Source of the DNA: Obrimoposthia wandeli | Lineage: Eukaryota | Direction of reading: 5' to 3' | Assembly: GCA_977020255.1 (NCBI GenBank) | Contig: CDROCS010000088.1 | Location: forward strand, 1 to 64,000 | Length of the DNA stretch: 64,000 nt | Shown here: piece by piece, positions 13,634-61,872 of the stretch | Numbering within the stretch: the stretch's first letter is position 1 | Layout of the letters: each line of letters starts with the position of its first letter | Notes under the pieces: model-generated | The model's input: only the letters and a program-made list of their open reading frames with translations | Told to the model about the DNA's origin: nothing | The model's database searches: none | Program-made: the position numbers and the translations under genes

Positions 13634-13918
13634 AAGGTTTTAACCCTTAAAGGTTAGACCCTTGAGGATTAACCTTCGAAGAACCATCTGCAAAGTTCAA
13701 TGGGCTATCATATAGTTAAAACCTCATGTCAATACGATCTTTAGATAAAAAGTTATTCAAGTTTAAAACTATGTTACTAAGAATAGAAGGAAAAATAACA
13801 TGTTTAAAGGTTTTAACCCTTAAAGACCCTGAGGATTAACCTTCGAAGAACCATCTGCAAAGTTCGCTGGGCTATCCTATAGTTAAGTCTGCATGTCAAT
13901 ACGACCTTTAGATAAAAT
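13634..13918 (+). repeat. Direct duplication upstream of the MCP gene
   Basis: aaggttttaacccttaaag..gaggattaaccttcgaagaaccatctgcaaagttc..catgtcaatacga.ctttagataaaa occurs at ~13634 and ~13807. Confidence 0.85.
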
Positions 13919-15148
13919 GAGTTGTGCTAAAACCGAATTGTGTATTTTTGACAAACCACTGCCTCAGGTAGTAGTTGATAGTGCTAGTTTTGAGGAAATA
14001 TTTCCAACAAATACCGTCAGTGGAACTTCTTCTCCGGATTTGGAATTCAATATAAATGGATCGAATTCTCAATATCTTGATTTGAATGATAGTCTACTTC
14101 TCGTGAAATTGAAGGTTACAAATCAAGGAGGTGCTAAACTAGAAGATGATTTGGAAATCAAAGCGGCCAATTTCATGTTTCATACGTTATTTAAGGATGT
14201 GATTCTCTGTTTCAATAATGTTAAGGTCGAAGGAAATAATACAAGTTATACGCATAAAGCAATGATTGAAACATTACTGAATTACGGAAATGATACGAAA
14301 TTGATTAATCTTGATGCTATTGGATTTGATGATGACGCAGAAAACAGAAAAGCTTGGATTGAAAAGTCTAAGGTATTGTCACTTTGTGGAAGTCTTCATT
14401 TGGATTTCTTTTTAAGAAGCCAAAGTATCTTTTGCCTGGAATAAATGTCCATATTAGAATGAAGAGAAACCCTGTAGGTTTCAGTATTGTTTGCGCCGAA
14501 ACAATTACTCCTGCAATTGAGATTACAGAAGCAAAGTTGCTGGTTCGTAGAGTAAAGGTTGAACTATCAGTACTTATCGCTCATCGCATGGGGCTTGAGA
14601 AGCAAAATGCATGTTATCCAATAAGAAAAACTAATCTTGTTTCTCATGCAATTCCCACTGGAGCGCTTTCCTATTACAAGGACCAGATTTTCGGTGACAT
14701 GCAGCTCCCGAACTTTGTTTTGATTGCTTTCCAGAACACATCGACCTATGGAGGAAGTTCTAAAAGGGAAGTTTCTCAATTTGGTCATATGCATGTGAAC
14801 TCAATAAAACTTGCACGTAATATTGATTATCAGGAAACTTACTCTAATGACTTTGAAAACGATGATTATGTGTTTTCTTATGTGCAATCTCTAATTAGAA
14901 ATCTTGGTCATTTGGATAAGGATTCCAATGTCGGTATTTCATTGCAAGATTTCAAAAACAAGTATACACTATTCACATTTGTTCTTTCTCCGGATTTCGA
15001 CATTACCCAAGCTCAAATTCCTAAACAGGGAAATTTGAAAGTAGAAATCAAGTTTACCAAAGCACTTAAAAATCCAACAAATATCATAATCTATGGAGTA
15101 TTTGATTCTGAGGTTCAAATCACTAAGGGTGGAACTGTACTTGTATAA
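13917..15148 (+). pseudogene. Polinton major capsid protein (double jelly-roll), one frameshift near 14410
   Basis: MSCAKTELCIFDKPLPQVVV..YLDLNDSLL..KPKYLLPGINV..GNLKVEIKF..IYGVFDSEVQITK. Clearly homologous to 58965-60185. Confidence 0.9.
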
Positions 15149-15177: not shown

Positions 15178-15565
15178 ATGAAGTAAGCCTCTTTTATTGT
15201 ATTAATTAATATATAATTTTAGTTCTGACGAGATATTAACTAGCGGAAGAAAACTACTCGGTTCGCGTTTCAATGGAGTTTTCAGTCTTGATCGTATACC
15301 ATCATTGATTCACTCAGGAGGATATGTAATAAATACGCATTCATCAAATCTGCCTGGAGAACATTGGATTGCAATATATGTCTTGCTAAACAAAATATTT
15401 GTATTTGATCCCTATGGCTTATATTACCTATCTAAATTAGTCTCTACAGTACTTGATTCAAATAAGAAAGTACATTTCAATAAAATACAATACCAAAGCG
15501 CTTTAACACAATCTTGCGGACAAATCTGTTTACTGTGGCTGGCAAGCATAAACAATTTCAAATAA
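15178..15565 (+). CDS. Adenain-type cysteine protease, two exons (15178-15182; 15223-15565), 40-bp GT-AG intron
   Basis: ATG AA|gtaagc...tttag|T TCT gives MNSDEIL..FNGVFSLD..GGYVINT..PGEHWIA..FDPYG..QSCGQIC with His/Asp/Cys catalytic motifs. Confidence 0.85.
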
Positions 15566-16140: not shown

Positions 16141-19100
16141 ATGAATAACGTAAGTTTTTATTTAAAATTTTTATATTTTATATTTATTTTTAGTGCAACA
16201 TGAACAAGAATCTATGCTTTGATGATCAACATCACGAGTGTGGAATACAAATGAAGGCCTATTTCAAGAAAATCTTCAACCGAAAGACATATTTTATCTG
16301 TCCGCAATGCGAATCAGTCCAGGACATCGGTTGGACGACGTTCGTGAATGAGCACGAGCGTCATCTCGGATACTTCCAAGCTCGTGGAAAATCAGCGATA
16401 TTCCGGAATTCTCCACAGAACAGCATGAGCTATAGATCAGTTCAAGCTCCAGTGGTAGTTGCTGATCAAGTTCAAGCTCCAGTGGTAGTAGCTCCTGTAG
16501 TAGTAGCTCCTGTAGTAGCTGATTCAGTTCAAACTTCAGTTCAAGATCCTGTAGTAGCTGCTGCTGATCCTGTCAATGTTCCTGCTGATGATGATCCTGT
16601 CAATGTTTCTGCTGCTGATCCTGTCAATGTTCCTGCTGCTGATGATCCAGTCAAAGTTCCTGCTGCTCCTCGAAAACGGATTATGCCCCCGTCAAGTATG
16701 TTAAGCGCGATACCATCAACTAGTGGTGCATCTGCGGCTAAGAGTGCTAGGTTAGGGGTTTTAAGAGAAAAGAGAGGACTAAGGGGGTCTTATGTGACAT
16801 TATCGTTAGATTTGACTAGCGATAATGTTTTTGAATTAAATGTGCCGCAACACTTTATAGAATCCTTAAAAGTAACAGTTGGAGAATTTGCTACTTGTAA
16901 AGTGCAATTCGGTATCAAGGTGGAGTTTGAGAATGAGAGTGGTGTGAAACAATGGAATGTTTCTAACAAGGCCACTACATTCACTCCCGTTTTAATTGAT
17001 AGGGGTATAGAGTCTCTCAATGCGAAAATTGAGAAGTACTCTCAGAATGCCAGTAATTGGGTTCTGAAGAGGGTACTTGAAATTTATTTCATAGTAACCC
17101 GAACAACAATAATCAATAGACTACAGGGGAGTGCATTTATTCCAACATGTGACGTGTTGAAGGCATCAAGGTGCATCATTAATATTCAAAATTCTGGTGT
17201 ACTTTGTTTCATTTACAGCATTTTAGCTGTTTTGAAATATAATATTATTCCGGGACATAGGTATAGGGCATCCCAATATAATGAATTTTTATGGGAATTG
17301 AAATACGAGGATGAGGATATGCCAATGAGACTATCGGATATTCCGAGATTTGAAAGAGAAAATCCATCTCTCTCAATCAATGTATTTTCCTATAATAGGT
17401 TTGGACTATTGCCGAATAATCAGGAGATTTTCAAGAATCCGTTTATTGATGTGATATATCGGACTTGTAATCCTGATGGGGATCCGGTGAATATCCTTCT
17501 TATTGAGGAGAATGGATCTTTTCACTACACTGCAGTACCGAAACTTAATAAATTACTGAATTTTCGTAATAGAGGAGTAGGTACGCAAATTCAGAGTACC
17601 TGCACGGGTTCCGGAGAGCGCTCAGCTACGAAAAGCATATTCCTCTCTGTCGCATGAATCTAGATCGGAGCACGTTATTCACCATGCCTGCGGACCCGGT
17701 GATTACGTTTAAGGATTTCAAGAAAACAATATCTCCGCCCTTCGTCGTATATGGGGATTTCGAGTCGGTTCTTGCTCCTCACGGGATTCATCATCAGATT
17801 CATCTCCCGATAGCGGCCGGTATGTTGATGTCTCCTGTTTCCGCGATTGGATACACCCAAGACTATTCGGTCTATACTGGAGAAAACTGTGTAGTTGACT
17901 TTCTGAAGAAACTGGAGGACTTGGTGAAGTCTGTGGTGCTGCCCTGGTACAGACAGCATGCAGAGGAAGTTATGAAGCCACTTACACCGGAACAGGTAGC
18001 GAGTTACGTAGCGGCCACAAAATGTTACCTGTGTAATAAGCGCTGCGTAAATAAGGTCCGGGATCATGATCACATGACCGGAGAATTTCTTGGAGCTGCC
18101 CATTCTAATTGTAATTTGTCACGAAGACTGAATCGTGCTCTCCCAGTAGTTTTCCATAACCTGAGAGGGTACGATCTCCATCACATTCTCAAGCATGCAC
18201 TGAGCAAGTTTCCTCATTGTAGTATTTCAGTGATTCCTCAATCAACTGAAAAATTCCAGGCGATGCTCGCGCACATTGATGGAGTGTGTATTCGATTTAT
18301 CGACTCACTTCAGTTTCTGGATAGCAGTCTCGAGAAACTCGTTGGAAATTTAGGAAATGTCCTGCTTACAAATTCAATTTTCCCACTTCATCTCATCACG
18401 GGAAAAGGAATCTTCCCATACGATCTAGCGGTATCGGAGACTGCTCTTAGAGAAATCCCAAGCCTCCCCGCGAAATGGAACGATGACATCAGCAATGACC
18501 AGTACGAGCATGCAAAGAAGGTATGGACCGATCTCCAGTGCACTTCACTCTGGGACTATATGTTGGTTTACCTGAAAATCGACGTATACCTGCTCGCCGA
18601 TGTCTTCACGGCTTTCCGGTATCGGGCTATCTCAGACGACGGACTGGAACCTCTCAACTTCTTCTCGATACCTGGTTTGTTTAAATATACTGTTTGTAAA
18701 GTTTTGGTAATATTTAAAAATACTCAAATTATTTTTGTATATTTTCTGTAATTTTTTGAAAAATAATCAATTTAATCAATTTCAGGATTAACCTTCGCGA
18801 GCGCCTTCAAATCATTACTGGGCACCGAGGCAACCGATACAAGCCCAGCTATTCCGGCAGGACCTACAGTGGAACTCATCCAGAATCCGGAAATGCATCA
18901 GATGTTTCATGAAGGAATTCGAGGCGGAATGACCTTCGTCAATGAACATCACGTATCCACGGAGAATGGTGACACTTTATTATATATTGACGTGAATAAT
19001 TTATATGGCTGGGCCATGTCCCAATTTCTACCGGTAGGAAAGTTTTCATGGGTGATTGATCGGGTAGAGTTAGGGGACTTAATATCAGAACTTTCATATA

Positions 19101-20233
19101 AGGATTTAAGCTGTAGTCAACATGCACATTTAGTTGAAGTCGACTTGTGCATTCCCGATAATTTACATGATTATTTAGATGATCTACCTTTAGCTCCTAA
19201 AAAGGATTGCCCACCTGGTAGCAAAACAGCTAAACTACTTTTGACTCATTGAGTAAAAAGACACTATCTTGTCCATTCTCGTCTGCTTCAGATGTATCTT
19301 AGACTCGTTGCAAAGATACAAGCTGTTCATCGTGCAGTCAAGTTTGAACAAACTAATGTCTTTGAGCAGTATATCAAATCAAATTCAGAAAAGAGGGCTA
19401 TGGCAACAAATGATTTTGAGAAAGATTATTATAAGTTAAAGGTTAATTCTCTTTTTGGAAAATTAATAGAAAATTTGAAAAAGAGAATTAACCTAAGAAT
19501 ATGTAATACAGTACAGAAACTTGTAACTTATTGTAGTAAGGCTCAATTTCGTAAGTCTATAGAAATAGATGATGACCTTGTTGCGGTTTTACTCAACAAG
19601 GATATTATTTGTTTGGATAGACCAAGTTACATAGGGCAGGCGGTATTAGATCTGAGTAAGTTGAGGATGTACGAGCTCCAATACACTCAGTTAGAGAAGT
19701 ACAGAGTACAATTTAACTGCTCCATTAGAATTGTTGCGGGTGATACGGACAGATTCTTTCTAAAATGTAGAAACGTAAATGTTCAAGCTGACTTATTGCC
19801 CGCCATGATAACCGATGGATTATTGGATACCTCTAAATATCCTATAACCCACCCACTCTATTCGACTGCGAATACGGAAATAGGCAAATTTAAGGACGAG
19901 AGTAAAGGGATATGTACTTACAAGGAGTGCATATTTTTAAATCCTAAATGTTATAGTATGTTGACTACGGCTGAAGATTCGCATATGAGAGCGAAGGGTA
20001 TTAGCTTAAGGCAAACTAACTTAAAACATAGTAATTTCCTTGCTGTGTACGAAAGCGGAGTAAGTGAGCGTGTGCAGCAGAGCCGCATAAGCTCATTTAA
20101 TCATCAATTGTATACAGTAAAGATGACTAAAATTGCCTTAAGTAGTTCTGATAATAAACGTAAATGGGTGGAAAAGAACCGATCAGTTGCGTATGGACAC
20201 TTTCTCTATCCAGATATTGTAGAAATTGTTTGA
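16141..20233 (+). pseudogene. Protein-primed DNA polymerase B of A, with introns 16150-16193 and 18675-18785; frameshift near 17600; stop near 19250
   Basis: Motifs: IINIQNSGVLCFIYS and FHY (vOTU-like); VVYGDFES; CYLC..RDHDH.TG..CNL; FHNLRGYD; YIDVNNLYG; KLKVNSLFGK; AGDTDR. Confidence 0.93.
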
Positions 20234-20488
20234 TTTAAGGAATATATTGTTAAGTGAATTGTGTTTATTTAAACTTGTTTTTCTAACAAATATTCTTTAT
20301 TTTCTTATATAAATTTCAAAATGTATTTTAAAACATAAATTTTAACGTAACCTAGAGTAAAATATCCTTTGATCCTAAACATGCATAAAGCTCTTACATC
20401 ATTTAACCCTTTACACACATTTACTTAGTTTCCCCATTTAGTATTACATCATTTAACCCTTTCCCAGGCTTCCAATATCTTATAATTT

Positions 20489-20820
20489 GAAAATTATGAA
20501 TTTATTCCATCAAAATTAAACTTGACCTAACTAATGACTGGAATTGGCTAACATTCAGTATTTGAAATTATTATTTCTGGATAGCCAGAGAGAAACTATA
20601 TTTAGAAATCAATAAATCATTACTTAAATTTAATTTTAAATCAAACATTTTACCCTTATTATAAATTCAAAAAATTATTGATTTACGAAAATCTGTTGAA
20701 AATTATGTATTTATTCCTTCAAAATTAAACTTGGTCTAACTAATGACTGGAATTGGCTAACAATTGGGATTTGAAATTATTATTTCTGGATAGCCAGAGA
20801 GAAACTCTATTTAGAAACCT
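20489..20820 (+). repeat. Direct repeat, ~120-bp unit, 209-bp period
   Basis: gaaaattatg.atttattcc.tcaaaattaaacttg..ctaactaatgactggaattggctaaca at 20489 and 20698. Confidence 0.85.
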
Positions 20821-20881
20821 TTCAAACACTAACGAATAGTAAATTATTCGAGTAGTATTTCGAGTATTAAAAAGCGTTAGT

Positions 20882-21295
20882 AATCGAGGTGGCCCGAAAG
20901 ACACACGGTTTATTTGGTCTAAAATGAGTGAAATAGCCCTAAAATCCCTTAAAATGCCTCGAAATTCAGGTTTTTGCCTGTAAATTTGCCTAAGACCTAT
21001 ACACATACGTAAAATCTACCTGGAAATATCTCAAAATTGTCCTGAGAGTCGCTTAAACAGCCTCAGGAATCGAGGTGGCCCGAAAGACACACGTTATTTT
21101 TGGTCTAAAATGAGTGAAATAGACCTAAAATCCCTTAAAATGCCTCGAAATTCCAGTTTTTGCCTGTAAATGTGCCTAAGGCCTATACACATGCGTAAAA
21201 TCTACATGGAAATATCTCAAAATTGTCCTGAGAGTCGCTTAAACGGCCTCAGGAATCGAGGTGGCCCGAAAGACACACGTGTTTTTCCGTCTAAA
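20882..21295 (+). repeat. 186-bp subterminal tandem repeats (right end of A)
   Basis: aatcgaggtggcccgaaagacacacg at 20882, 21068 and 21254. Confidence 0.92.
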
Positions 21296-24200
21296 ATATG
21301 TCCGAAAATGACCGAATATTGACCGAAAATGACCGATTTTGTCACGACGATTCGTCTAAATTTGTCCCTAATTTAGGGAGTACAACATGTTTTGACTAAA
21401 ATTTCCAGAAAATTCGTCTAAATTTGTCCCTAATTTAGGGAGTTTGACCAGTTTTGAGTGAAATTTTCTGAAAAAATTCTGTCGCTGGGGAGGGGGGTGG
21501 GGGGGGGGTGGCCCGAAAGACACATATCCCCCTACTCATGTAATAACATATATATGAAAATACCCATAACTGATGATACAGAAGGACATAGACAATGGAT
21601 TCACTTTGACTAATCAGCCCATTTATGGTACTGTAAAAAGCCGAGATTAGACAGACACCAATACTACAAATGTGGTTACTTAAAAATAAAAATTGACAAC
21701 TATTAATTATTAACAAGTAAAACCGACAACAAACGATAACCTTTCAGTTAAAAATACATTTCTATATAAAGTAATATATAATTTTTGCACTCAAACTGAT
21801 GGCGATACATCGAATGTTGCAAAAAAAAAGCACTATAGTAATAAAAATATTCCGCTATTAGATAAGATCCATATAGGCAATTGGGATATGAAACTACCAA
21901 GCATGTCTAGAAACTGAGATTGGAGTTTATCAATGTACAAGATTAAACATAATAGGTCTTCTTTTTAAATATTATTGTGAATCAAAGATTTTGTCTCACA
22001 TAATTTATTATTCCGAAACCAATCTTAAACATAAATTAATAAACACGGATAGTTTTATTTAGAAACTATGAAATATTTTCATTCCAAACATGAAAAATAA
22101 GCCTTTGGACAGGTGACATTTTCAACAAAGTTGCCTTCCTGAAATATTGAATCGGAACAACATAGAAACACAAAGATATTCATGAAATACAGTATGGTGG
22201 TACAATTGTCCTATTTCATCTAGTTAAGATTACAAATATTTATAACTGTCTAGCTGACGTGACTTGCATTTTTTTGTCTGCCACAGCTTATGCTGTACAT
22301 GTTAATAAAAACTTCAGTGCAATGCGCGTGTCTGTTACTTGTTAGACAAATCGCTCACGACAAAAATGAGTTTGATACCATACATCACTATTTTCTGTTA
22401 TATTAGATAACCCTTGTTTAGGTCTATTTGTATGTGCCCAATTTTGTGGCCATCATAGCATTTTAAAATAGTTTTTGACGAGTTTTAAAGTAGTTAAAAT
22501 AAATCGGGATTATTGCTTTGGGTTTTTCAGTATATTTAAACTTTTAAAATAATCTTTAAAAAAATCGTAACAAAAATGAAACAATCTAAATTAAAACACG
22601 CCATTATATACAGGATAATTCAAAGTAATGGTCACAAATTCAATTCCTAGTAATTTACAAAATTTACTTTGTATAGAATACATTTTTCTTTTAATTTCTT
22701 TATAAAATCTCAATTTCATGAGATTAGGAATTGAAGCTGAAATAGTCATTGTGATCACCTTCTACACATAAGTAATTTTTGCTTCAGATAGAGTCAAAAA
22801 TGCTACAATTTACAAATGTAATTAAATTTAAGAAATCAAAGATGCGTTATTATATTGATAAAAATATTCCTAAAAGCAATTTAAAAAAGTCGAACATTCA
22901 TATATTTTATAAGTTTTAATAGAATTATATAAACTTTATTTTTAATCTCTATCAAATGGCCCAGAAAATTCGAATCATTTCTGCTCTAATGGCATATATG
23001 TTTTTAACCCAATATGATTATGATTGATATAAATTACAATGTTAAATTTTTAAAATCCCTTGTTTATTAATCGAATTACCAACTTTGAAAATTTAAAATT
23101 TACAAGAAAGTCATTTATTGAATTTCAGTACAATTTTAATGGTAATTAAATTACGTTAATTGAAATTGCAAAATTAAAATCGTAAAGCAAATATCAAACT
23201 AATGAGCATGTCAGTTGTTTCTTAAAATCTCAATTCTCTGAAAACAATTAATTTAAACACTCAGAGGATGCAATTACTTTTTTCGTGAGTTAGCTAAAAT
23301 TAATTAAGCTAACTGAGAAATCAGTTTCAACAACACGACGAATTTACAGATTTGTCAACAATTCAAACAATTGTTATAATTTCCTTGGAAACTGTTAAAA
23401 AAGAAAGTTAGCCTCAAAATCAATGTATCTAAAATTTGCTACGTCAAGGTTTCACAATTTCATTTACTGAAATGTAGTGATTTTATAACGAATACCTTTG
23501 ACAGCGTTCTTTTCAACATATCGTTATTATTCTATCTCAATTTATTCCCCTTATTTGAAAAAAACTTTTAAAGATAAAAAATTATACTCATACAGTAACA
23601 TACATTTATTCAAATAGACTGAGTCTTTTTACACCGAAAATTACGACATCGAAAGTCGAATTTTATAACTTTAAAACATAAATTTCAAATTGACATAACA
23701 CAAATTAAAAAAAAATGATTACTAAATAATTTTTTTCACTGTTGGATGTTTGTTGATTATTTGTATTTACTATTTTTCATTTATTATCAAAAAAAGTATT
23801 ACAATTTCAGAGTTATGAAAAAGAAACATTGAATTCTGAATCCTTTTTAAATCTGAAATTAAAGTTTCAAAGTTAGGAAATTTTAATTTTTTAAATATTT
23901 ATTTTTTCTTTTATAATAAAATTTTGGTTTAAATTATTAAAATAAGTATTTTATATTTTCGTTCGTTCTCTCTGTGTTTATAAAGAATAATATTTCTATT
24001 GTTATGAAAACTTTTAAATTATATTATAAATTTTCAAAATTTCTGAATCCATTAAAAATAACGAAAAACTCCACAACATCTATTTTTTATAAAAGTTTTA
24101 CGACTAGTGATTTATTTATAGTGAATCAACATTATTTGAAAAAAATTCTTTAGGGATGATAATTTAAATGACTGGATATTAGTCAGTAATTCCTCCTACG

Positions 24201-49950: not shown

Positions 49951-50830
49951 AGTAGGTGGAAGGATGGAGTCTAAGCCACTTGACCCCCCCCCAAAGGGTG
50001 TCACTCCATAAGGATGTCACACCATAAAAGGTGTCTTGCCACACCATAAGGGTATATGTTGCCTCACCTCTGGTGAGGCAACATATACCCTTATGGTGTG
50101 GCAAGACACCTTTTATGGTGTGACACCCTTATGGTGTGACACCCTTTAGGGGGAGGGGGGTCAAGTGGCTTAGACTCCATCCTTCCTTGATATACTACTA
50201 TGGTCGTCCATAGTTTAAAGGGTCAAGTGGCTTAGTCTCCACTCTTCTTTTTGAGATATACCACTATGAAAGGGTCAAGTGGCTTAGTCTCCACCCTTCT
50301 TTTTGAGATATACCACTATGAAAGGATCAAGTGGCTTAGTCTCCACCCTTCTTTTTGAGATATACTACTATGAAAGGGTCAAGTGGCTTAGTCTCCACCC
50401 TTCTTTTTGGCTAACTACTAATTCAAAGGATCAAGTGGCTTAGTCTCCACCCTTATTTTTTGTGATCTAGTCCATAATGAAAATTTATGATAAAGTTCAC
50501 ACTTAACAATTAAGAATGTATGACGTAATCATACACACACTATTCTATGTGAAATTTATACTAAGTTCACTCTTATTAGTTAAGAATGTATTACGTAATC
50601 ACACACATACTATTCTATGTGAAAATTTATGATAAAGTTCACTCTTATCAGTTAAGAAATGTGGTTTTTAACACACACATACACTATTTTACGTGAAATT
50701 TAAACTAAAGTTCACTCTTATCAGTTAAGGAATGTATTACGTAATCACACACATACTATTCTATGTGAAAATTTAGATCAAAGTTTTTTCCCAGGCTTAC
50801 ACATCTAAAGAATTATGTTAAAATTTGTAT
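49951..50830 (+). repeat. Left TIR of B: 229-bp palindrome, five 52-bp repeats, ~65-bp AT-rich repeats
   Basis: Palindrome 49958-50186 centred on gcctcacc-TCT-ggtgaggc. tcaagtggcttag cores at 52-bp period (units at 50221, 50273, 50325, 50377, 50429). Confidence 0.95.
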
Positions 50831-50898
50831 TAAATCAAAATTAAATCAAAAATAAATAAGAAAGAAGTCAGAGAATAATACAAAATTAAACACATTTA

Positions 50899-53800
50899 TT
50901 ATGTTATTTCATAATGTCCATAAGCGCGGCTTCTATTTTTCTCGATCCAATAGCGCTTGTCATCTGATGAGCTGAGAGCAGTCTTTTGTATTATGATTGT
51001 ATATAGTTGATGATTTATTGTTCCAAACTTCTTTTGAGGTATAGTATATGCAATACCGTTTTCATACACATCTAAATATGTTTGATGTACAACCGTTGAA
51101 CCCTTAAGATTTACTCCTTTTGCTTTATTATTTTCAAAGTCATCTTCAAACTTAAGTGAATAACATTTACAAAGTAAGAAAATCCATTCTTTATACATTC
51201 TTCCTTCCGATTCATCTTTAAATAAACCTATTTTACTATTAAATTTATTAGAATATAATGGATCATTCACATTATAATTTGACGTATCTAATAATCCATC
51301 TGCAATCATTTTTGGTAACAACTGTTTTCTTAAATTAACGTTTTTACATTCCAAAAAGAATGAATCGGTATCACCGGCAACTATATTAATTGAACAATTG
51401 AATAAATTACGATATATTTGCAAATCATGATACTGAAGAGTATACATTCGTAATTTGCTAAGGTCTAGTACAGCTTGGCCTATATAATTTGGTCGATCGA
51501 GACAAATAAAATCTTTTCTTAATAAAACAGCTATTAAATTATCATGAATTTCAATTGATCGTTGAAACATAGGTTTGCTAGTATATGTGATTAATTTTGT
51601 AGAACTAGTGCAGATGCGAAGATTCAATCGTTTCTTAACATTTTCAACAGTCTTTCTATACAAACTAACATTTTTAAGTTTATAAAAATCTTTGTCACAT
51701 TTATTCGTTGCTTGTGATCTCATTTCTGAATTATATTCTATATATTCTGCGAATATCTTAGCCTGAGAGAATTTTACTGCTCGATGAATAATTGTTACCA
51801 CTGCTCCTAAACTAACATACATCTGCAATAGTCTCCAATGAATAACATAATGACTTTTTGGCGAATGTGTCATTAAAAGTTTTTCAACTTTTTTACCAGG
51901 TGGACATTTCTTTTCTGGAGCTATAGGAAGATCATCTAAAAAGTCATGAAGGTTTTCTGGTATTACCAAGTCTACTTCCATAAAATAACCATATTCAATA
52001 TGTTCCATGTTCACATTTTTCATTTCATGCAATATTTCGTTTAATTTTATATCATCAAGAATCCATTCAAAATCTCCTTTGGTAAAGGTTGATCAAGAGC
52101 CCATCCATATAAATTATTAACATCTATATATAAAAGTCTTGTTTCTTCATCAGCGACTACATGATGCTTATTGACAAATGTCATTCCTCCTCGTATACCC
52201 GAAGAAATCATGTTGTACATTTCAGGATCCTGCATCAGTTCAACCTTATGTTTTAACATTTTTAGTGCACTTGCCCAACTCAACCCAGGAATGCTAAAAA
52301 AGTTAAGTGGTTCTAAACCATCTTCACTGAGAGCTTTTCTTCTGAATGTTTGAAATACGTCAGCTAATAAATATACGTCAGTCTTTAAGTAAACTAACAT
52401 ATAATCCAACATATTTCTACAATTGGTTATTTTCCAAACATCTTGTGCTTTTTGATATTCAGTGTCTGTGATTTTATCATTCCATTTTACTGGTAAACTT
52501 AACTTATTCTGGAGGACATTTAATGATGTAGCAAAATCATATGGGAATATTCCTTTGCCATCAATAAGTTTAGATGGAAAAACTGATCTTGTTAATGGAA
52601 TAGTTGGTAATTTAGTTGCTAAATTTTCCAAAGATGATTGTAAAAATTGCAAAGAATCTATAAATCTCAGAGTTATTTGACCTAATCTTACAATCATGGC
52701 TTGAAACTTTTCCGTTGATTGTGGTATAATATTTATATCCCAGTCAGTAAATTTATTCAATGCATGTTTTAAAATATGATGTAAATCATAACCTCTGAGA
52801 TTATGAAACACAATAGGTAAAGTTGGACGAAGTTTTCTTGATAAATTACATTCATTGCATGCCGGACCTAGATATTTACCAGTAAAGTGATCATGATCTT
52901 TAACATATTTTTCAGATGATTCGTGACATAAATAACATTCATCGGCATTGCTAAATGTATGAATCTCTGCATTTGTTAAGGGAATCATTACGTTTTTAAG
53001 AGCATCTAAATACCATGGCAAAACCTTTTCTTTAGCCAAGTTCTCTATTGACTGAAGAAACTTAACTATGCAGTCATCACCAACATTATATTGATACTGG
53101 GTTTCAATTTCATCTGTACTCATAAATAACATGCCAGATGCGACAGGCATATGCTTTTGATGATAACTCTCATCTGGTACTAATACAGATTCAAAATCAG
53201 CGTAAACGACATATTTCGGTGATATAGTTTTTGACCAATCGTTGAATTTAACGTACTTATTCTTAGGCATAGTATACATTGTAGTGCTTTCTTGATTATA
53301 GTCACATAAAACTTTATGCTTTTCTAATGACAAATCGGTTTTGAAACCATGTAAACACTTTTCACACCATTTTCTGCTAATTCTAGTCGTTCCAGTTCGA
53401 ATATTTAATAGCCGGTTAAGACAACTTATTCCTATATAATGAAATCGTTCCTTGGATTCTAGTAACAATAAATTAACTATAGTTCCTTCCTTCATTTTTG
53501 ATTTGTATGCAACATCGATATAAGGATTCTTGATAACATCAGTTTTTGATTCTTTTTCACTTACCTCGTTGAATATGAATACATTTATTATTATACCAGG
53601 ATTTTGCCGTTCAAATTTTGATATATTTGATATTTTCATAGGCATGTCTTTGGAATTATATACAAAATCATTTAAAAATCTTTCATAGTTGCTTGGTCTA
53701 TTTCTATGTGAGTCTATTTCATTATATTTAAGTATTGACAATATTGCATAAATAAAGCAAAGATTATCAGAGTTTAGAATATTTATGACTGCTTTAGATT

Positions 53801-54534
53801 TTGCAAGAGAATTTGGTGATTTAATATATGAATGACCTGACAATGCACAAATTTGACTATATTTAGTAACAATAAATGCATATTCAAGTATATTCATCAA
53901 TTTCCAACCACTACCTTTTTCTGAATATTCTTCAACTTTATTTTCCATTGTATCTTCCATTTCTGAAATTATAGCATGTGAAAAAATCATTGCTCGATGT
54001 GAAGCATACCATTCTTTAGTTTCTCCATCATTCTTTTCAAACCTCATTCTAATGATGTATTGTATCTTTGCTTTTCCCATTAATTGCACTATTCTTTCTA
54101 GTTCGTTTAATAATGAAACTGGAAAGACTTACAAGATTGAGATGATCTACTTTCATGGATATCATTGAATAACTATTTTCTAATGATGTTTTAGTATGTA
54201 TATTATCATTTATTTTACGTTTTCGTGACGTAATTGTAGGAGCTGAAATTACTATGTTTGATGGTACATTAATTATATCAGTTCTTTTGCTTAAAGCCGG
54301 TACTTTAAATAATTCTTTCTTACTAACATTTTCATATGCTTTTAAATGACTAACATGTCGACTATAAAATAAGTTGTAATCAACATTTTCAGTGCTTAAA
54401 CATTGTGGACATATGAAATAATTTATCTTTTTGTTTGAATAACCATAATATTTTTTCATTATATCATGACATTCTTGAGGATTAAAATGTGTATCCGAAA
54501 AACAAATATTTGAATAAGTTTTACATATACTCAT
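50899..54534 (-). pseudogene. Protein-primed DNA polymerase B of B, split into three frames
   Basis: ORFs 54049-54618, 52047-54089 and 50899-52032 are collinear with pPolB of A. Motifs: NSDNLCFIYA/FHY, VVYADFES, KDHDHFTG..CNECNL, YIDVNNLYG, KLKNVSLYRK, AGDTDS. Frameshifts near 54130 and 52080. Confidence 0.93.
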
Positions 54535-54640
54535 CTGATGATATGATTGATTTGATTGGACTGATTGGATATTGGTTGATTTGTAGACTGAATAAAAAAA
54601 ATATATATATAAATACAATAATTTAATTATTTTACTTACA

Positions 54641-55105
54641 ATGTTAACAAATATTAATTATAAAGGAATTTGCTTAGATGATGTATCCAAATTAAAATTT
54701 CGAACACGACCAGAACAATACGTTTATAAAGCCAAAGATTATACAATACTTATTTTTAGAAATAAGAAATGCAGGATTATGGGATGTAAGGTACCTATTA
54801 AAAATATTTCTTACCCTTTAAGAATAAATATACTTGGTATTCAATCAATTACGATATGTGAAAATTTAGAACAAAGTATCAATCTATTTATATTATCGAA
54901 TGTATTACGTAACGCATGTTCATTTGACCCTGAGGTTTTCCCAGGCTTAAGATTAAATATTTTCAATCCATTGTGTGTAAATATTTTCACATCTGGAAAG
55001 GTCGTAATTTTAGGTCTTAGAAATTTAGATTTTCAAGATCAAGTTAACGATATCATGACATACATTAAAAAAAAATTATATAAATACGAAACAATTTCTA
55101 ATTAA
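54641..55105 (+). CDS. TATA-box-binding protein (TBP)-like protein
   Basis: Second repeat SFDPEVFPGLRLNIFNPLCVNIFTSGKVVILG versus eukaryotic TBP SYEPELFPGLIYRM.KP.IVLLIFVSGKVVLTG. First repeat TILIFRNKKCRIMG versus TALIFSSGKMVCTG. Confidence 0.82.
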   Translation: MLTNINYKGICLDDVSKLKFRTRPEQYVYKAKDYTILIFRNKKCRIMGCKVPIKNISYPLRINILGIQSITICENLEQSINLFILSNVLRNACSFDPEVFPGLRLNIFNPLCVNIFTSGKVVILGLRNLDFQDQVNDIMTYIKKKLYKYETISN

Positions 55106-55278
55106 TTATGGTGAAACAAAGATTTCGGATATTCAAGAAGATGGAAGAAGTCTCATCTGGACCGATTCATACAGCGACCGAATATTTTGATGTTTAATAA
55201 ATATTTAATAAAATGTTGTTATTGTTATAAACATGTACTTATTCTGATATATTTATTTTATATTATTATTTATATATA

Positions 55279-55926
55279 ATGTTATTAACAAACAATTCGA
55301 CTTTTCAAGTAGTAGGACCAAGTGGTAGCGGAAAAACTTTATTTGTTTGTAAATTATTAAATTCAAAAATGTTTAAAAATAAATTTAATAAAATATATTG
55401 GCATCAAGGTGGTGATGGAGAAGCTGGTTTAACAAACCAAGAATTTAATAAAATAAAAAACATTAAGATTATTAACGGTTTTGATGAAAATTGGACGACA
55501 AGACTTGTAAAAGGTGATGTAATTGTTATTGATGACTTATATCAAGAGGCTAACAAAGAATCTGATTTTAATGATTTATTTACAAAAATTGCAAGACATA
55601 GAGAAGTTACTGTAATTTTTATAACCCAAAATTTATTTCATCAAGGAGGAAATCATCGTACTCGTAATCTTAATGTACATTATTTGATTTTATTCAAAAA
55701 TCCTAGAGATCAAACAGTGATAGATTTTATTGCTCGTCAAGCATTTCCTCATAACAAGAGTTATTTAATTGATGCGTTTCATGATGCTACATCTTTACCA
55801 CATGGTTATTTATTTTTAAATTTTACTCAATCATGTCCTGATGATTTAAGAATTGTTACTGATATATTTAACCGTAATGGTATTACAGTCTATAAACAAA
55901 TAAATAATAATAAAGTTTTAAAATAA
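55279..55926 (+). CDS. Packaging ATPase (FtsK/A32-like)
   Basis: Walker A VGPSGSGKT, Walker B VIVIDDL, ITQNLF, and LFKNPRD. Confidence 0.95.
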   Translation: MLLTNNSTFQVVGPSGSGKTLFVCKLLNSKMFKNKFNKIYWHQGGDGEAGLTNQEFNKIKNIKIINGFDENWTTRLVKGDVIVIDDLYQEANKESDFNDLFTKIARHREVTVIFITQNLFHQGGNHRTRNLNVHYLILFKNPRDQTVIDFIARQAFPHNKSYLIDAFHDATSLPHGYLFLNFTQSCPDDLRIVTDIFNRNGITVYKQINNNKVLK

Positions 55927-55927
55927 A

Positions 55928-56341
55928 ATGAATTTTAAAAAGAGTATTCTTAAACATAGTAAAAGGACAGATAAAGATGAAGTTAAAAAATTAATAAATA
56001 CTGTATTATATGATCGTAATAATATTGAATTTTCAAAAAGTTTACCTTATTTTAAAACCTTAATTGACGTACCAAAAACGAATAAAATGAAAATGTTGAA
56101 ATCATTTCCAATTTATGTAGTTGATGATTTAATAAAAATTTTAAATAAAATAATTTATGGTAAAATTAAACCTGATGATAATATTTTAAAATATAAAAAT
56201 TCATTAATAAATTTAGCAAATTCACGTGGTAAAATTAATAAAAGAAACATTATTTATAATCAAAATGGTGGATTCATATTGGCCCTACTGCCCGCTATAG
56301 CATCAGTAATAGCTAGTGTTATATCTTCAAGATGGGGATAG
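55928..56341 (+). CDS. Basic core-like protein with an adenovirus pX-like hydrophobic C-terminus
   Basis: Lys-rich, ending QNGGFILALLPAIASVIASVISS, with a GG|F candidate adenain site. Confidence 0.6.
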   Translation: MNFKKSILKHSKRTDKDEVKKLINTVLYDRNNIEFSKSLPYFKTLIDVPKTNKMKMLKSFPIYVVDDLIKILNKIIYGKIKPDDNILKYKNSLINLANSRGKINKRNIIYNQNGGFILALLPAIASVIASVISSRWG

Positions 56342-56485
56342 TTGTCTTAATAACGAAAATAATTACATTCATTCGTTTTATACAAACATATAAACAGATT
56401 AAAATATATTTAACTTTTATAATAATGGGGATAAACAATACAAAGTTGTCTAACTTATTTATAAATTTTAATTCTTCATGCTGCA

Positions 56486-57511
56486 ATGGAAAAGATTTGG
56501 AACAATCCAGAAGATCCAGACGGTTATACAGGGTTAGAAAAATTGACAAAAAGAGTCAAACAATCAAAAACAAACACACAAAAATGGTTAAGAAATGAAT
56601 TATCATATAGTCTGAATAAACCTTTAAGACGTAAATTCCCTACTAGATCATATAAAACTAATGGTATTAATTCGTTATGGCAGATGGATTTAATGGAAAT
56701 GATTCCTTATTCTTCAGTAAATAATGGATTCAAGTATATTTTAACTTGTATTGATGTATTTAGTCGTTTTGCAAGGGCAGTTGGTGTTAAAACAAAATCA
56801 GGTATTGATTTATTACATGCAATAGAATCTTTAATTGTTGATGATGTACCAGTAAATATCCAAACCGATGAAGGTAAAGAATTTTTTAATTCACATGTTA
56901 AGAAATTATTTAAAACTGAAAATATCAATCATTATTCAGTATATTCTCAATATAAAGCTGCAGTAGTTGAAAGATTTAATAGAACGTTAAGAGAACGGTT
57001 AAAGAAATATTTTACTAAACAAGGTAATAAGAAATGGGTGAATGTATTACCAAAAATTATTTATGCTTATAATAATTCTAAACATAGAGGTTTAGATGGT
57101 TTAAAACCTGTAGATGTAAATAATAAAAATGAATTTGATATTTTGTTGAAACAAAATCTAAAAGAAAAGAAACTTAAATCTAAATATAAAATTGATGATT
57201 ATGTTCGAATATCAAAAATAAGTACAAGTCCATTTATTAAAAATTTTAATCAAAATTGGAGTGATGAGGTTTTTCAAATTCATGATATTAATTATAAACA
57301 AAATCCAATAATGTATATTTTAAAAGATATTGATAACGTCATCATCAAAGGAAAATTTTATAAACAAGAGTTACAATTAATTGATAAACCTAAACTATAT
57401 CGAATACAAGAAATTTTAGAAACTAAAGGTCGTGGTAAGAATAAACAATATTACGTAAAGTGGCACGGATACTCTGAACCTTCTTGGATATTTGCTTCTC
57501 AAATTGAATAA
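56486..57511 (+). CDS. Retroviral-like DDE integrase with C-terminal chromodomain
   Basis: WQMDL, QTDEGKEF, VVERFNRTL; C-terminal IQEILETK..YYVKWHGY. Intact ORF. Confidence 0.96.
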   Translation: MEKIWNNPEDPDGYTGLEKLTKRVKQSKTNTQKWLRNELSYSLNKPLRRKFPTRSYKTNGINSLWQMDLMEMIPYSSVNNGFKYILTCIDVFSRFARAVGVKTKSGIDLLHAIESLIVDDVPVNIQTDEGKEFFNSHVKKLFKTENINHYSVYSQYKAAVVERFNRTLRERLKKYFTKQGNKKWVNVLPKIIYAYNNSKHRGLDGLKPVDVNNKNEFDILLKQNLKEKKLKSKYKIDDYVRISKISTSPFIKNFNQNWSDEVFQIHDINYKQNPIMYILKDIDNVIIKGKFYKQELQLIDKPKLYRIQEILETKGRGKNKQYYVKWHGYSEPSWIFASQIE

Positions 57512-58524
57512 TGTCAAAATATATTATTTTACCTAGTAATAGTTGTCCAAGTACTCAACCTAACAATACAGCCAATCAATTTACTGTAGATTGGGAAAAC
57601 TCTCTAAATTTAGATGGTGAATGGGAGGTTGCCTTGACTGAATTTGTATTTAATTTTACTCCTTTAACAATACAAACTAATTCAAAAATACTTTATAAAA
57701 CGGAAAAGATAGAAATGAAAACTTTCGATGTATCTTTTGCAATTTTAAATGGATTAATTTTTAATAATTTAAATACTGTTTTCAATTTCAAAATTACAAA
57801 GAATCAAAAATTAGAAATAAGTACAATTAACAGTATTCATCGAATGTTGTTAAAATTCGAAACTTTAGAAGAATCAAAAATTATAGGTTTTAATGAAATA
57901 CAAAAAATTTCTAGTCATGTTATAACAAGTGATGAAATTGTTGACATAAATAAAAATATTCATGCTAAAATGAGAATAACAATTTATTATTTAGCTGAAT
58001 ATGAATACGAAATAAAATTTAATCAAAATTATTTGATACAAGATAGTACTTCATTATGTAATATTATAGCCAGTAAATGTAATGAAATTTTTAAAAGCTG
58101 TAATATAGATTCAGACGGATTATTTGATATTTTATTAAAGAAAAATGTAAAATCAGTTTTATTTGACGAAAAACTTGCATCTTTATTAGGTTTTAATAAT
58201 GTTTTCTTTGAGAAACGAATTAAAGGTTTTCAAAAACCAACACTTTCTAGCTCATATAATCAAATGTATATTTATACTAGTTTAACAGATTCTGTCTTAG
58301 TAGGATCTGATTATGTTCCACTGTTAAAGTCTATTTGGTTAAAATCATTAAAATATCGATATGGAGATGTAGTAAATGTTAAAATTGATAATCCAATGTA
58401 CTTGAAAATGAGAGATTCAAGTATTAATAGAATCGAGGTAAATATACGTGATGATTCTGGTAATTTAATTCCATTTTCATATGGAGCAAAAACTAGTTTA
58501 ACTCTTCATTTACGTAAAGTATAA
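57511..58524 (+). CDS. Minor capsid protein (penton)
   Basis: LPSNS..PNNTANQF..L.LDGEWEVALTE; MYIYTSL..VG..VPLLKSI; IEVNIRDDSG.LIPF..G.TSLTLHLR. Confidence 0.88.
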   Translation: MSKYIILPSNSCPSTQPNNTANQFTVDWENSLNLDGEWEVALTEFVFNFTPLTIQTNSKILYKTEKIEMKTFDVSFAILNGLIFNNLNTVFNFKITKNQKLEISTINSIHRMLLKFETLEESKIIGFNEIQKISSHVITSDEIVDINKNIHAKMRITIYYLAEYEYEIKFNQNYLIQDSTSLCNIIASKCNEIFKSCNIDSDGLFDILLKKNVKSVLFDEKLASLLGFNNVFFEKRIKGFQKPTLSSSYNQMYIYTSLTDSVLVGSDYVPLLKSIWLKSLKYRYGDVVNVKIDNPMYLKMRDSSINRIEVNIRDDSGNLIPFSYGAKTSLTLHLRKV

Positions 58525-58567
58525 ACAATATAAATATATTTAAAATATAAATATATATATATATAAA

Positions 58568-58973
58568 ATGAATACATCAATTATAAAATTTTATAGCAAA
58601 AGTCAACAGGGCGGTGAACTTCCCTATTTCATTGGTAAACAATATGGATCTGGTTGGTATCAAACTATTTCTAGATTAGCTATTCCATTGTTAAAAAAAG
58701 TTGGTTTATCAGCAGCTACAAGTGCTGCCAATGTAATTGGTGAAACGGTAGGAACTGCGTTAACAAATCCAAAAACATAATTTCATCTCTCAAAGAAAAT
58801 ACAATCAAAGAAGTCAAAACTTTGATTCCAAAATTAAAAAAATAATGCTGTTGATAGTTTAAATAAAGTCGCAAATTGTGTTGAACAAAATGGAAAGGGT
58901 CTTAAACGTAAAAGAAATAATTTAAATAGTATAAACAAACGTCTTAAAGGTACTATTTTCCAAAATGACTAGT
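58568..58973 (+). CDS. Small core/membrane-active Polinton protein, with two frameshifts in A-runs
   Basis: QQGGELPYFIGKQYGSGW..ISRLAIPLLKKVG. Continues in shifted frames to QNGKGLKRKR..FQND*. Confidence 0.6.
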
Positions 58974-60185
58974 ATAAAATCTGAATTGTGTATTTTCGAT
59001 AGACCACTACCTCAAGTAGTGATTGAAAATTCATGTTTTGAAGAAATATTTCCAATCAATTCAATTACTGGAAAAAATTTAAATGACATAGAATTTAATA
59101 TTCATGCATCTGAAGAAGATTATCTGGATTTGAATGATACTTTGTTAAATATTAAATTAAAAGTTGTAAATGAAGATGGTACTGATTTAATGAAAGATAG
59201 TGATGTAACTCCAGAGAATTACATGTTTCAAACTTTGTTTAGAGATGTTATTCTAACACTTAATAATGTAAAGGTTGAAGGAGGAAATGGAACGTATACT
59301 CATAAGGCTATATTCGATACTCTTTTGAATTTTAGTAGTGATACCAAGTATACTAACCTTGAATGTAGTGGGTATGATGATGAAGCAGAAAATCGTAAAC
59401 AATGGATTAGTGAATCTAAAATATTTTCATTATGTAATTCAATTAGATTAGATTTCTTTGAACAACCAAAATATTTGATTCCAGGGATTAATGTTCATTT
59501 GAGATTTATGAGAAATCAGCATAATTTTTCGCTCTATTCAGAAACTTCAAAACCAATTATTCAAATTCTAGATGCTAGATTGTATGTTAGAAGAGTAAAA
59601 GTTGATTCTTCAGTAATGATTGGACATCAGTTAGGTTTGCAAAGTCAGAATGCAGTTTACCCAATTAGAAAAACTCAGTTAGTAACATATTCAATTCCTC
59701 AGGGTTCTTTGGAACTTAATAAAGATCAAATATTCGGAGACTATCGTTTACCCAAGTTCATTTTGATTGCTTTCAAAGATACACCTCAGGGTGGTAAGGA
59801 ATACAAAGTTAAATCTTCTACGTTCAATACATTTAATGTTTCAACAATATCATTAGCTAGAAATACAGATTATCGAGAAACTTATAATCTAGATAATAAC
59901 AATTTTTCATTAGCATATATGCAGTCAATTATTCGAAATATGAATATTTTAGATAAAAACGTGAATAATGGTATCATATTTTCTGATTTTAAATCAGGAA
60001 GTTCGATTTTCACTTTTCTATTAGCACCAGATTTTGATATAAACACTACTCAAGTGCCTAAAACTGGTAATTTAAGACTTGAAATTAGATTTAATTCTCC
60101 TTTGACCGTTCCAACAAGTGTTTTGATTTACGGAATATTTGATTCCGAAATTCAGATTACGAAAAATAAAACTGTGATTGTATGA
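58965..60185 (+). CDS. Major capsid protein (double jelly-roll)
   Basis: MTSIKSELCIFDRPLPQ..YLDLNDTLL..DFFEQPKYLIPGI..GNLRLEIRF..YGIFDSEIQITK. Intact 406 aa. Confidence 0.92.
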   Translation: MTSIKSELCIFDRPLPQVVIENSCFEEIFPINSITGKNLNDIEFNIHASEEDYLDLNDTLLNIKLKVVNEDGTDLMKDSDVTPENYMFQTLFRDVILTLNNVKVEGGNGTYTHKAIFDTLLNFSSDTKYTNLECSGYDDEAENRKQWISESKIFSLCNSIRLDFFEQPKYLIPGINVHLRFMRNQHNFSLYSETSKPIIQILDARLYVRRVKVDSSVMIGHQLGLQSQNAVYPIRKTQLVTYSIPQGSLELNKDQIFGDYRLPKFILIAFKDTPQGGKEYKVKSSTFNTFNVSTISLARNTDYRETYNLDNNNFSLAYMQSIIRNMNILDKNVNNGIIFSDFKSGSSIFTFLLAPDFDINTTQVPKTGNLRLEIRFNSPLTVPTSVLIYGIFDSEIQITKNKTVIV

Positions 60186-60557
60186 AGTAAGCTTATTGTA
60201 TATTATATTCTTTATTAAAATTAGTACTTTAGAAATTCATAAATCCGGAAAAATATTATTGAATAACAAATTTAATGGAGTATTTCATTGGATAAAATTC
60301 CATCATTAAAACCCGGAGGTTACATTATCAATACTCATACTTCAAATCTACCAGGCGAGCATTGGATAGCAATATTCGTTGACAGATTCGAGATTCGAGT
60401 GTTTGATCCTTTTGGATTCTATTATCCTGCAAAGTTGGTGTCTACACTTGAAAAAGAAAACATTCCAGTCTACTATAATCGAGTTAAATGTCAGAATCCA
60501 TTAACTAAAAACTGCGGACCTCTGAGTCTTTTATGGTTGAAACTTCAACACAAATAA
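60182..60557 (+). CDS. Adenain-type cysteine protease, two exons (60182-60186; 60225-60557), 38-bp intron, 1-nt frameshift near 60285
   Basis: ATG AA|gtaagc...ttag|T ACT gives MNTLEI..FNGVF; then GGYIINT..PGEHWIA..FDPFG..NCGPL. Confidence 0.85.
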
Positions 60558-60611
60558 TTTTAAGTATAAACAAATATATCATTTTAGTATTTCATTTTAT
60601 TTTATTTTCAA

Positions 60612-61064
60612 ATGGCTTTTATTGATTTAGAATGTTTTATTGATAATAATGGAGAATATATTCCAAAGGAATTATGTATAATGTATGTGAATGATATGAC
60701 TTGTCCATTTCATTACGTGTTTAAAAATCAAATACCATGGAGTAGTTTATCATTTACAGTTAAAAGAAAAAATCTATATTTGATAAATCATCATCATCAG
60801 TTATCCTGGTTTGAAGGTGAAAGCTCTGATATTCATATTGATGATGTTGAAACAATATTCTATGTTATGGATTCTATTGATGGAAAGAAAATTAATTTAG
60901 TGAAACGAATGTTTCCAAATTTGAGAATTGTGAATTATAATAAAAGTTTCAAAAATTTAAAGAAAATGCCAAAAAATATTCGATGTCCGTTTAGAAAACA
61001 CGGAAAACATTGTGCTTATTTGAAATGTTTTTCTCTATGTATTGATTATGTAAATTGTATATAA
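60612..61064 (+). CDS. Small DnaQ/DEDD-like accessory protein with a Cys/His C-terminus
   Basis: MAFIDLECFID..YIPKELC (DxE motif); CPF..HGKHCAYLKC. Confidence 0.65.
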   Translation: MAFIDLECFIDNNGEYIPKELCIMYVNDMTCPFHYVFKNQIPWSSLSFTVKRKNLYLINHHHQLSWFEGESSDIHIDDVETIFYVMDSIDGKKINLVKRMFPNLRIVNYNKSFKNLKKMPKNIRCPFRKHGKHCAYLKCFSLCIDYVNCI

Positions 61065-61119
61065 ATATATTTATTAAGGATATTTTATTTTAATATATAA
61101 TTTATGTTATTTAAATAAA

Positions 61120-61872
61120 TTTTACCATAATTCTATAAATGTGAAAGCCTAGGAAAAACTTTAGTTTAAATTTCACATAAAATAGTGTATGTGTGTGTTA
61201 AAAAACGCATTTCTTAATTGATAAGAGTGAACTTTATCATAAATTTCACATAAAATAGTGTATGTGTGTGTTAAAAACCACATTTCTTAATTGTTAAGAG
61301 TGAACTTTATCATAAATTTTCATTATGGACTAGATCACAAAAAAAAGAAGGGTGGAGACTAAGCCACTTGATCCTTTGAATTAGTAGTTAGCCAAAAATA
61401 AGGGTGGAGACTAGACCACAAAAAGATGGGTGGAGACTAGATCACTAAAAGAAGGGTGGAGACTAGATCACTAAAAGATGGGTGGAGACTAAGCCAATTG
61501 ACCCTTTCATAGTGGTATATCTCAAAAAGAAGGGTGGAGACTAAGCCACTTGACCCTTTCATAGTGGTATATCTCAAAAAGAAGGGTGGAGACTAAGCCA
61601 CTTGACCCTTTAAACTATGGACGACCATAGTAGTATATCAAGGAAGGATGGAGTCTAAGCCACTTGACCCCCCCCTAAAGGGTGTCACACCATAAGGGTG
61701 TCACACCATAAAATGTGTCTTGCCACACCATAAGGGTATATGTTGCCTCACCAGAGGTGAGGCAACATATACCCTTATGGTGTGGCAAGACACCTTTTAT
61801 GGTGTGACATCCTTATGGAGTGACACCCTTTGGGGGGGGTCAAGTGGCTTAGACTCCATCCTTCCACCTACT
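61120..61872 (-). repeat. Right TIR of B with palindrome 61642-61865
   Basis: Reverse complement of the left TIR. Centre gcctcacc-AGA-ggtgaggc at 61745-61763. Confidence 0.95.

Follow-up and report, generated by a model that had tools for sequence, protein, structure and literature searches.

A position-conserved intron, probably old and ordinarily spliced, in the protease gene of an invertebrate Polinton lineage

The window (the whole 64,000-nt stretch of DNA analysed) carries two Polinton elements, one of them complete-ended. This element, B (49951..61872), has long terminal inverted repeats (AGTAG…CTACT) and the 6-bp target duplication GAGGTG on both sides; its terminal repeats (49958-50156 and 61642-61839) show a near-perfect hairpin with 85-bp arms and tandem units of 52 and 72 bp. 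The DNA polymerase B gene lies on the minus strand (50899..54657) and is broken in the window copy; it gave no DNA_pol_B_2 match, and it has an Endonuclease_7 insert and motif text in common with the polymerase of element A. On the plus strand, the interval 55231..58524 holds a packaging ATPase gene (55231-55926, Pox_A32, E = 7.2e-6), a small conserved gene, an rve integrase gene with a chromodomain (56465-57511, PF00665, E = 4.5e-10) and a conserved 338-aa gene without a Pfam match, with no introns seen; by its position after the integrase, the last of these is a candidate for the putative minor capsid protein (penton). The major capsid gene (58965..60185, plus strand) encodes a protein whose model (pLDDT 71) has its best matches in the iridovirus, PBCV-1, mavirus and Sputnik capsids (E from 1e-11 to 1e-14), and its predicted fold is a double jelly-roll. 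Its TGA overlaps the ATG of the protease gene (ATGA), an abutment that we considered as a special feature and rejected, since most neighbouring genes overlap likewise.

Element A is a partial copy in the window, its left arm missing. In place of this arm, 12794-13917 holds a piece of polymerase sequence in inverted orientation (73% complementary to 19710-20215), together with two direct repeats, both short. The major capsid gene of A (13887..15148, plus strand) is broken into two frames, encodes a protein 55% identical to that of B, and its stop ends 29 nt before the protease ATG. Downstream of the protease gene lies a protein-primed DNA polymerase B gene with an Endonuclease_7 (HNH-type) insert (16194..20233, plus strand), likewise broken in the window copy, with DNA_pol_B_2 matches in three frames (E from 1.9e-8 to 8.8e-6). 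The right end (20487..21536) is repeat-rich and ends in CTACT, a probable terminal repeat. In both elements the protease gene is followed by a conserved gene of about 155 codons (15583-16050 and 60612-61064), seen also in the other lineages viewed, including the metagenome loci L108 and L109; it has no credible Pfam match, and its acidic N-terminal motif presumably resembles that of DEDD nucleases.

Terminal repeats with a target duplication (in B), polymerase B, rve integrase, an A32-like ATPase, a capsid protein and an adenain-like protease were thus all found. The available text on animal Polintons or Mavericks (Eupolintoviridae, 'adintoviruses'; PMC8097293, 10.1101/2022.07.12.499685, 10.1101/2023.08.22.554363) describes the same repeats, 6-bp duplication, polymerase, integrase and ATPase, and likewise a double jelly-roll capsid gene with an adenain-like protease gene directly after it. 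The Endonuclease_7 insert of the polymerase recalls the HNH insert of nematode pPolB2 as far as that is described, a resemblance and not a tree-based relationship. Four protease queries against the 1.35 Gb assembly each returned at least 150 scored matches from 23,000-26,000 first-look candidates, numbers that are not to be read as copy numbers. Two of the loci also carry a dual-specificity phosphatase gene (PF00782; L252:1689-2372, E = 2e-7, and L258:1835-2482, E = 9e-10).

The two protease genes open with the same 10-mer, ATGAAGTAAG, which occurs at exactly two sites in the window, both strands counted, and both read ATG AA|GTAAG…TAG|T. In element A, a 5-nt exon 1 (15178..15182, plus strand) contains the start codon and two bases of codon 2; the predicted intron (15183..15222) is 40 nt long, in phase 2, 82% AT and bounded by GTAAG…TAG, with a stop in the ATG frame; and exon 2 (15223..15565) encodes an adenain-like cysteine protease that lacks an internal Met and retains the His, Asp, Gln and Cys motif residues. 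In element B, exon 1 (60182..60186, plus strand) is likewise 5 nt, the predicted intron (60187..60224, GTAAG…TAG) is 38 nt in phase 2, and exon 2 spans 60225..60557. Read without splicing, both genes yield Met-Lys-stop. Exon 2 matches Peptidase_C5 (PF00770) in A (E = 1.9e-4) and in the 3' frame of B (E = 3.3e-3), and a profile of homologues matches adenain 1avp (E = 1.7e-5), in an alignment that pairs His and Cys.

The coordinates and lengths given for both introns in the original prediction proved exact. Its further statement that splicing joins exon 1 in frame to the downstream exon is borne out, with one point that it overlooked: in the window copy of B, a frameshift follows about 20 codons into exon 2. 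In most of the B copies listed elsewhere, the frame stays open for 112 or 126 codons. Differences of this kind between copies (119/127 and 112/126 codons) were considered as intron loss and rejected, as they come from single-base changes inside the intron. The remark that the ORF caller had begun the downstream exon at TTG agrees with the table-11 ORF list, in which TTG 15305 (A) and TTG 60288 (B) are the protease starts; these would remove 20-28 conserved N-terminal residues. The interiors of the A and B introns have diverged, as had been noted, to the point of being no more alike than shuffled sequences (63% of 500 shuffles score as high). Of the 15 joints listed, out of 34, across 13800-16200 from four DNA-like runs of one sample, none falls at 15182/15223, a result that carries no weight either way.

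An intron at the same position and in the same phase (2) is found in the protease gene of six Polinton families of this genome and of two metagenome lineages, with lengths of 40 nt in A, 38 in B, 37 in C, 42 in D, 42 in E, 39 in F, 38 in L108 and 43 in L109/L111. GT and AG stand at the homologous site in all eight lineages; the donor is GTAAG or GTGAG in seven and GTAAT in one, with GTGAG or GTAAT in family E, L109 and L108. Five of the eight lengths are not multiples of three, and in every lineage the unspliced reading is a two-residue peptide. The ATG-NN-GT arrangement recurs in the best 30 loci of each search (29/30 for A, 29/30 for B, 27/30 for C and 29/29 for E), the acceptor AG in 30/30 of the best A loci, and ATG-NN-GT also in families D (two loci) and F (one locus). 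Copies of one family are near-identical, and their conservation is therefore no evidence of selection. Capsid proteins are 49-62% identical among distant lineages (mostly 50-62%) and 75-88% within A/C/F. Intron interiors exceed shuffles in just 3 of 28 lineage pairs (A-F, A-L111 and D-F), and no conserved interior motif was found among the eight lineages compared; a CTAAT close to the acceptor in family C could serve as a branch point, the other families having merely AT-rich look-alikes.

Removal of the intron restores a conserved frame, with a start motif and motif spacing like those of intronless homologues. After splicing, the Gly of the G-x-H-W motif is residue 46-49 of the protein, compared with residue 45-52 in 107 of 148 scored homologues, and M-(N/D)-(S/T) starts 58 of 150 homologues. 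No Met occurs in exon 2 of families A, B, C, E and F; in D and L111, residue 26-29 is an internal Met. Six database proteins (P0002, P0003, P0016, P0017, P0018 and P0039) have junk N-termini that end in Ser before the conserved start, which we read as a trace of the AG|T acceptor; that of P0003 begins MKYV, as expected from intron read-through. P0024 and a longer cluster mate were considered as spliced and unspliced forms and rejected, the same Met starting both. As a test of chance, the 70 nt preceding exon 2 were shuffled with dinucleotides preserved, and a similar ATG-NN-GTR…AG-like arrangement arose in 3/5000 cases for A and 5/5000 for B, and in 0-8/5000 for each of the eight lineages. TAAG is the baculovirus-type late promoter motif; such a promoter at the junction was considered and rejected, since E, L109 and L108 have GTGAG or GTAAT there.

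The metagenome set comprised 24 loci, of which seven close and ten distant relatives were viewed (L122-L128 stand outside this count); two of the close ones, L107 and L110, end before the junction. Two other close relatives, L105 and L106, have the same capsid-protease gene order and no intron, their proteases opening with Met-Asp-Ser straight after the capsid stop. No intron was found at the ten distant loci viewed, which all begin at an in-frame Met. Among viral contigs, 80 of 292 loci were retained, every one distant (28-51% identity over partial lengths). A 17-row capsid tree unites the eight intron-bearing lineages with the intronless L105/L106 in a single clade (100/100) whose base it does not resolve, and an AU test on 13 rows neither rejects nor shows the intron-bearing rows as one clade (p = 0.32). 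A weak protease tree (72 rows, 112 columns) places every intron-bearing, signature-bearing or mis-started row in one 23-row branch, the support for which (89/86) is not strong and which also contains four Met-start rows (L105, P0022, P0024 and P0045). Most simply, the intron would have been gained once, around the base of the clade, and losses would have followed, in an order that these trees do not fix. Given the close intronless relatives, the intron is dispensable over evolutionary time. The original prediction that the intron predates the split between A and B and has been maintained agrees well with its position and phase in six families and two outside lineages.

Other genes of these elements also appear to contain introns. 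In element A, the DNA polymerase gene begins with a three-codon exon (16141..16149, plus strand), a layout found also in other A copies and in family C, followed by intron 1 (16150..16193; 44 nt, phase 0, GTAAGT…TAG, 93% AT), which is 38-39 nt in four other A copies and 42 nt in two C copies. Intron 2 (18675..18785, plus strand; 111 nt, phase 1, GTTTGT…CAG) interrupts a motif that the B polymerase has in one piece, with no intron at this site; it measures 109-111 nt in three A copies and 140 nt in two C copies. Family C has an extra copy of polymerase intron 1 in a duplicated N-terminal block. Locus L260 pairs an F-type protease with the 3' part of a C-type polymerase, and L296 lacks polymerase intron 2; polymerase genes seem to have been swapped between families.

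A TBP-like gene accompanies these genes. In element B it is intronless (54641..55105, plus strand; PF00352, E = 4.8e-12), and in families A, C, D, E and G it has an intron of 37-40 nt, phase 1, at one shared codon; like the polymerase introns of A, this one splits text that is contiguous in family B. TBP-like genes (PF00352, E about 1e-11) were also seen at L246, L248, L250, L252, L254, L257, L242 and L292. An atlas search with the TBP-like protein returned TBP-domain clusters alone, with recognition under threshold, and a literature search on the subject found no mention of a TBP-like gene in Polintons. Just upstream of the B polymerase start, and overlapping the start of the opposite-strand TBP-like gene, is a 52-nt AT-rich stretch (54588-54639, minus strand) bounded by GTAAGT…CAG; with no in-frame ATG before it, it is a candidate leader intron. 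No introns were found in the ATPase, integrase and capsid genes: in the copies viewed, these genes read as one frame from an ATG of their own, though many copies are broken and a tiny first exon may have escaped notice in some genes. The protease intron is thus the most widely kept of the lineage and the sole coding intron found in family B.

For comparison with the host, an ab initio model was run on 20 host loci, and 60 of its 88 intron calls were retained by eye; the 28 discarded were junk 5' exons, frameshifted copies or poor models, short calls of 25, 35, 41 and 46 nt among them. The retained introns have a median of 280 nt, and 5 of 60 are at most 48 nt. These five, in CCT genes, are 40, 42, 43, 48 and 48 nt long and 76-88% AT, join conserved text that is contiguous in paralogues and, in four cases, lie near the 5' end of the gene. 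At L224, L225 and L227 the shortest host introns (40-48 nt) are near gene starts and most others are hundreds of bases long. The element introns look like this shortest class of host intron. In the comparison with host intron sizes that the original prediction had proposed, the host has similar introns of 40-48 nt, and the 37-39 nt of the introns in the B, C and F proteases fall slightly below the shortest found in this small sample (40 nt).

Published descriptions present these genes otherwise. In the available text, the ORFs of intact vertebrate Mavericks are called 'intronless', introns not having been observed (PMC8097293), and the core genes of nematode Mavericks are said to lack introns, which occur there only in cargo genes derived from the host (bioRxiv 10.1101/2022.07.12.499685). 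The portions available of 10.1101/2023.08.22.554363, PMC8502044, PMC11296320, 10.64898/2026.07.28.741278, 10.1101/2024.03.25.586562 and PMC11244446 do not mention spliceosomal introns in Polinton core genes. We found no report of the protease intron in the literature searched, though an earlier mention is possible, for instance in Repbase. From animal Polintons or Mavericks as described so far, the present elements differ in the introns of protease and polymerase and in the TBP-like gene that they carry; an inherited intron in Polinton core genes departs from the published intronless picture.

Introns are known in related systems of other kinds. In adenoviruses, too, the genes for the polymerase and the terminal protein begin in a very small exon upstream. 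The protease of adenoviruses and adomaviruses is homologous to that of the elements described here; these viruses use long-range alternative splicing from shared leaders, whereas here each coding sequence has its own minimal-length intron. Adomavirus late (virion) genes are described, in the text available, as using host splicing (bioRxiv 10.1101/341131). Dinoflagellate introner-containing polinton-like elements likewise have spliceosomal-type introns inside, which the accessible account describes as mostly young transposon insertions made after integration, about 25% of them in coding regions (PMC12166617); here, in contrast, lineages 50-62% identical have inherited a single intron at a fixed codon. 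Protist polinton-like viruses also have introns within their genomes, but these are, in the part of the source available, group I introns, self-splicing, structured and 309-376 nt long (PMC12220804), whereas the present ones are AT-rich, GT-AG and 37-44 nt (one of 109-140 nt).

We are highly confident that the protease feature is a real intron, as the original prediction held, from GT-AG in all eight lineages and the frame, start motif and spacing that its removal restores. That it is an old, ordinary major-class (GT-AG) spliceosomal intron, belonging to one invertebrate Polinton lineage, is the probable interpretation; splicing itself we infer from sequence. Element genes would be transcribed in the nucleus, presumably by Pol II, and the host spliceosome would join the 5-nt exon 1, with the sole start codon that can be used, to the remainder of the protease sequence. 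A single gain, at the root of the lineage or close to it, would have given rise to the intron, and its splice sites would have been preserved by purifying selection because damage to either leaves Met-Lys-stop. Its interior would drift within a narrow range of 37-43 nt, near the smallest introns of the host, and the intron would be lost only through an infrequent, precise deletion, of which the close relatives without it would be examples, such exact loss presumably being rare in an element that copies from DNA to DNA. The lineage would have gained or kept further introns, in the polymerase and TBP-like genes, and so behave as one adapted to a host-style gene structure rather than one with a lone regulated switch; dependence on splicing would then reach the replication genes as well.

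With no Met in exon 2 of families A, B, C, E and F, synthesis of the protease, and hence the elements, would very probably need the host splicing machinery. Adenain is a maturation protease, and a role of its homologue here in capsid maturation is suggested by that homology. To that extent the proposed dependence of capsid maturation on host splicing is supported by inference only, in its splicing part by the missing Met in five families and in its maturation part by homology to adenain.

Alternative readings differ in whether the feature is an intron, how it arose and what keeps it. That there is no intron, the protease starting at a near-cognate codon in exon 2 (TTG 15305/60288) or by re-initiation after the capsid stop with the motif as spacer or promoter, is extremely improbable. 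Stop-start overlaps are common in these elements and the table-11 list offers the TTG starts, but such starts drop the 20-28 conserved residues, the arrangement appears in eight lineages with donors GTAAG, GTGAG and GTAAT despite its rarity in shuffles (0-8/5000 per lineage), and length changes of 1-2 nt between families are tolerated, as for an intron. It is very unlikely, too, that introners or a hotspot placed introns in the same codon several times. The mostly unalignable interiors, the several changes that the tree requires at face value and the introners of dinoflagellate polinton-like elements (PMC12166617, as far as available) would fit such parallel gains; position and phase, however, are identical in eight lineages of one clade, the ten distant loci viewed lack the intron, the sequences of the eight lineages show neither an evident target duplication nor evident inverted ends at the intron, and the starred branches of the tree demand just one change.

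Two further readings accept that splicing is real and overlap partly with that of an ordinary intron. An intron kept for expression, raising output from its 5'-proximal place or marking the transcript as 'self' against silencing, is possible though unlikely. The protease intron, polymerase intron 1 and the TBP-like intron are all near gene 5' ends, as are four of the five short host introns, and the elements are very abundant (at least 150 matches per query, about 26,000 first-look candidates, neither being a copy number). Introns are described in the available text as shielding transgenes from HUSH silencing in human cells (PMC8770142), but this is a vertebrate result and HUSH may not exist in this host; moreover, the integrase, ATPase and capsid genes of the same elements are intronless, family B is abundant without the TBP-like intron and polymerase intron 2, and intronless kin exist. 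We regard as rather doubtful a switch, in which regulated retention gives Met-Lys-stop, so that a protease that could do harm is held back until late in the cycle or in a particular tissue. It would suit the in-frame stop directly after the ATG in 8/8 lineages, the wide retention of this intron (the only coding one found in family B), a size at the lower limit of the host, where splicing could be inefficient, and the splice acceptors adjoining start codons of adomavirus late genes (bioRxiv 10.1101/341131, as available). Yet a GTAAG or GTAAT donor itself supplies the stop at phase 2 and AT-rich introns hold chance stops, the donors are strong consensus ones (GTAAG or GTGAG in 7/8) around an interior in which no conserved motif was found, an early replication gene, the polymerase, also bears introns, and close relatives cope without. 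The late-gene switch of the protease suggested by the original prediction is hence unsupported: since the replicative polymerase and TBP-like genes also have introns, and L105 and L106 have none in the protease, an ordinary, constitutively spliced intron is likelier. Equally doubtful is the bolder idea of a widespread, overlooked clade of invertebrate Polintons in which the 5-nt exon and minimal intron give the element an inherent means of controlling the maturation protease. Capsid processing would there be timed by splicing at the limit of the spliceosome, the element would stay a transposon until splicing conditions allowed particle maturation, and its TBP-like protein may act in the same programme.

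If the intron is ordinary and old, as we prefer to read it, a gene whose sole start codon lies before an intron implies that the lineage has to rely on the host nucleus and host machinery for its transcription and processing. Surveys choose Polintons by uninterrupted ORFs, according to the available text of PMC8097293, 10.1101/2023.08.22.554363 and 10.1101/2022.07.12.499685. Gene callers would truncate or mis-start the protease, as in several database proteins, and intact elements would therefore score as defective. A read across the junction would be a DNA-proof marker of real Polinton expression, and the question of whether these elements run a capsid programme can therefore be tested directly here, the genome holding very many copies that are near-identical. 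Shared introns would also serve as rare characters for ordering Polinton families and for spotting gene exchange among them.

The host, an animal on a long branch, has an RPB2 at most 69% identical to any of the 120 matches listed. In a multi-copy COX1, motif context reads AAA as Asn and AGR as Ser, with the motif residues behind this reading being those we take to be conserved. Multi-copy mitochondrial-type DNA with AAA = Asn lies in long contigs at L221, L222 and L223, and the assembly also includes many contigs of bacterial origin and a further animal mitochondrial genome, unrelated to this one. Two contigs with Polinton copies also hold host markers: C480 (a CCT match) and C736 (the AAA = Asn COX1). 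An RNA polymerase I-like second-largest subunit gene (L103; G000:C3647, C767, C5418 and C5845) is present in many near-identical copies, some of them frameshifted.
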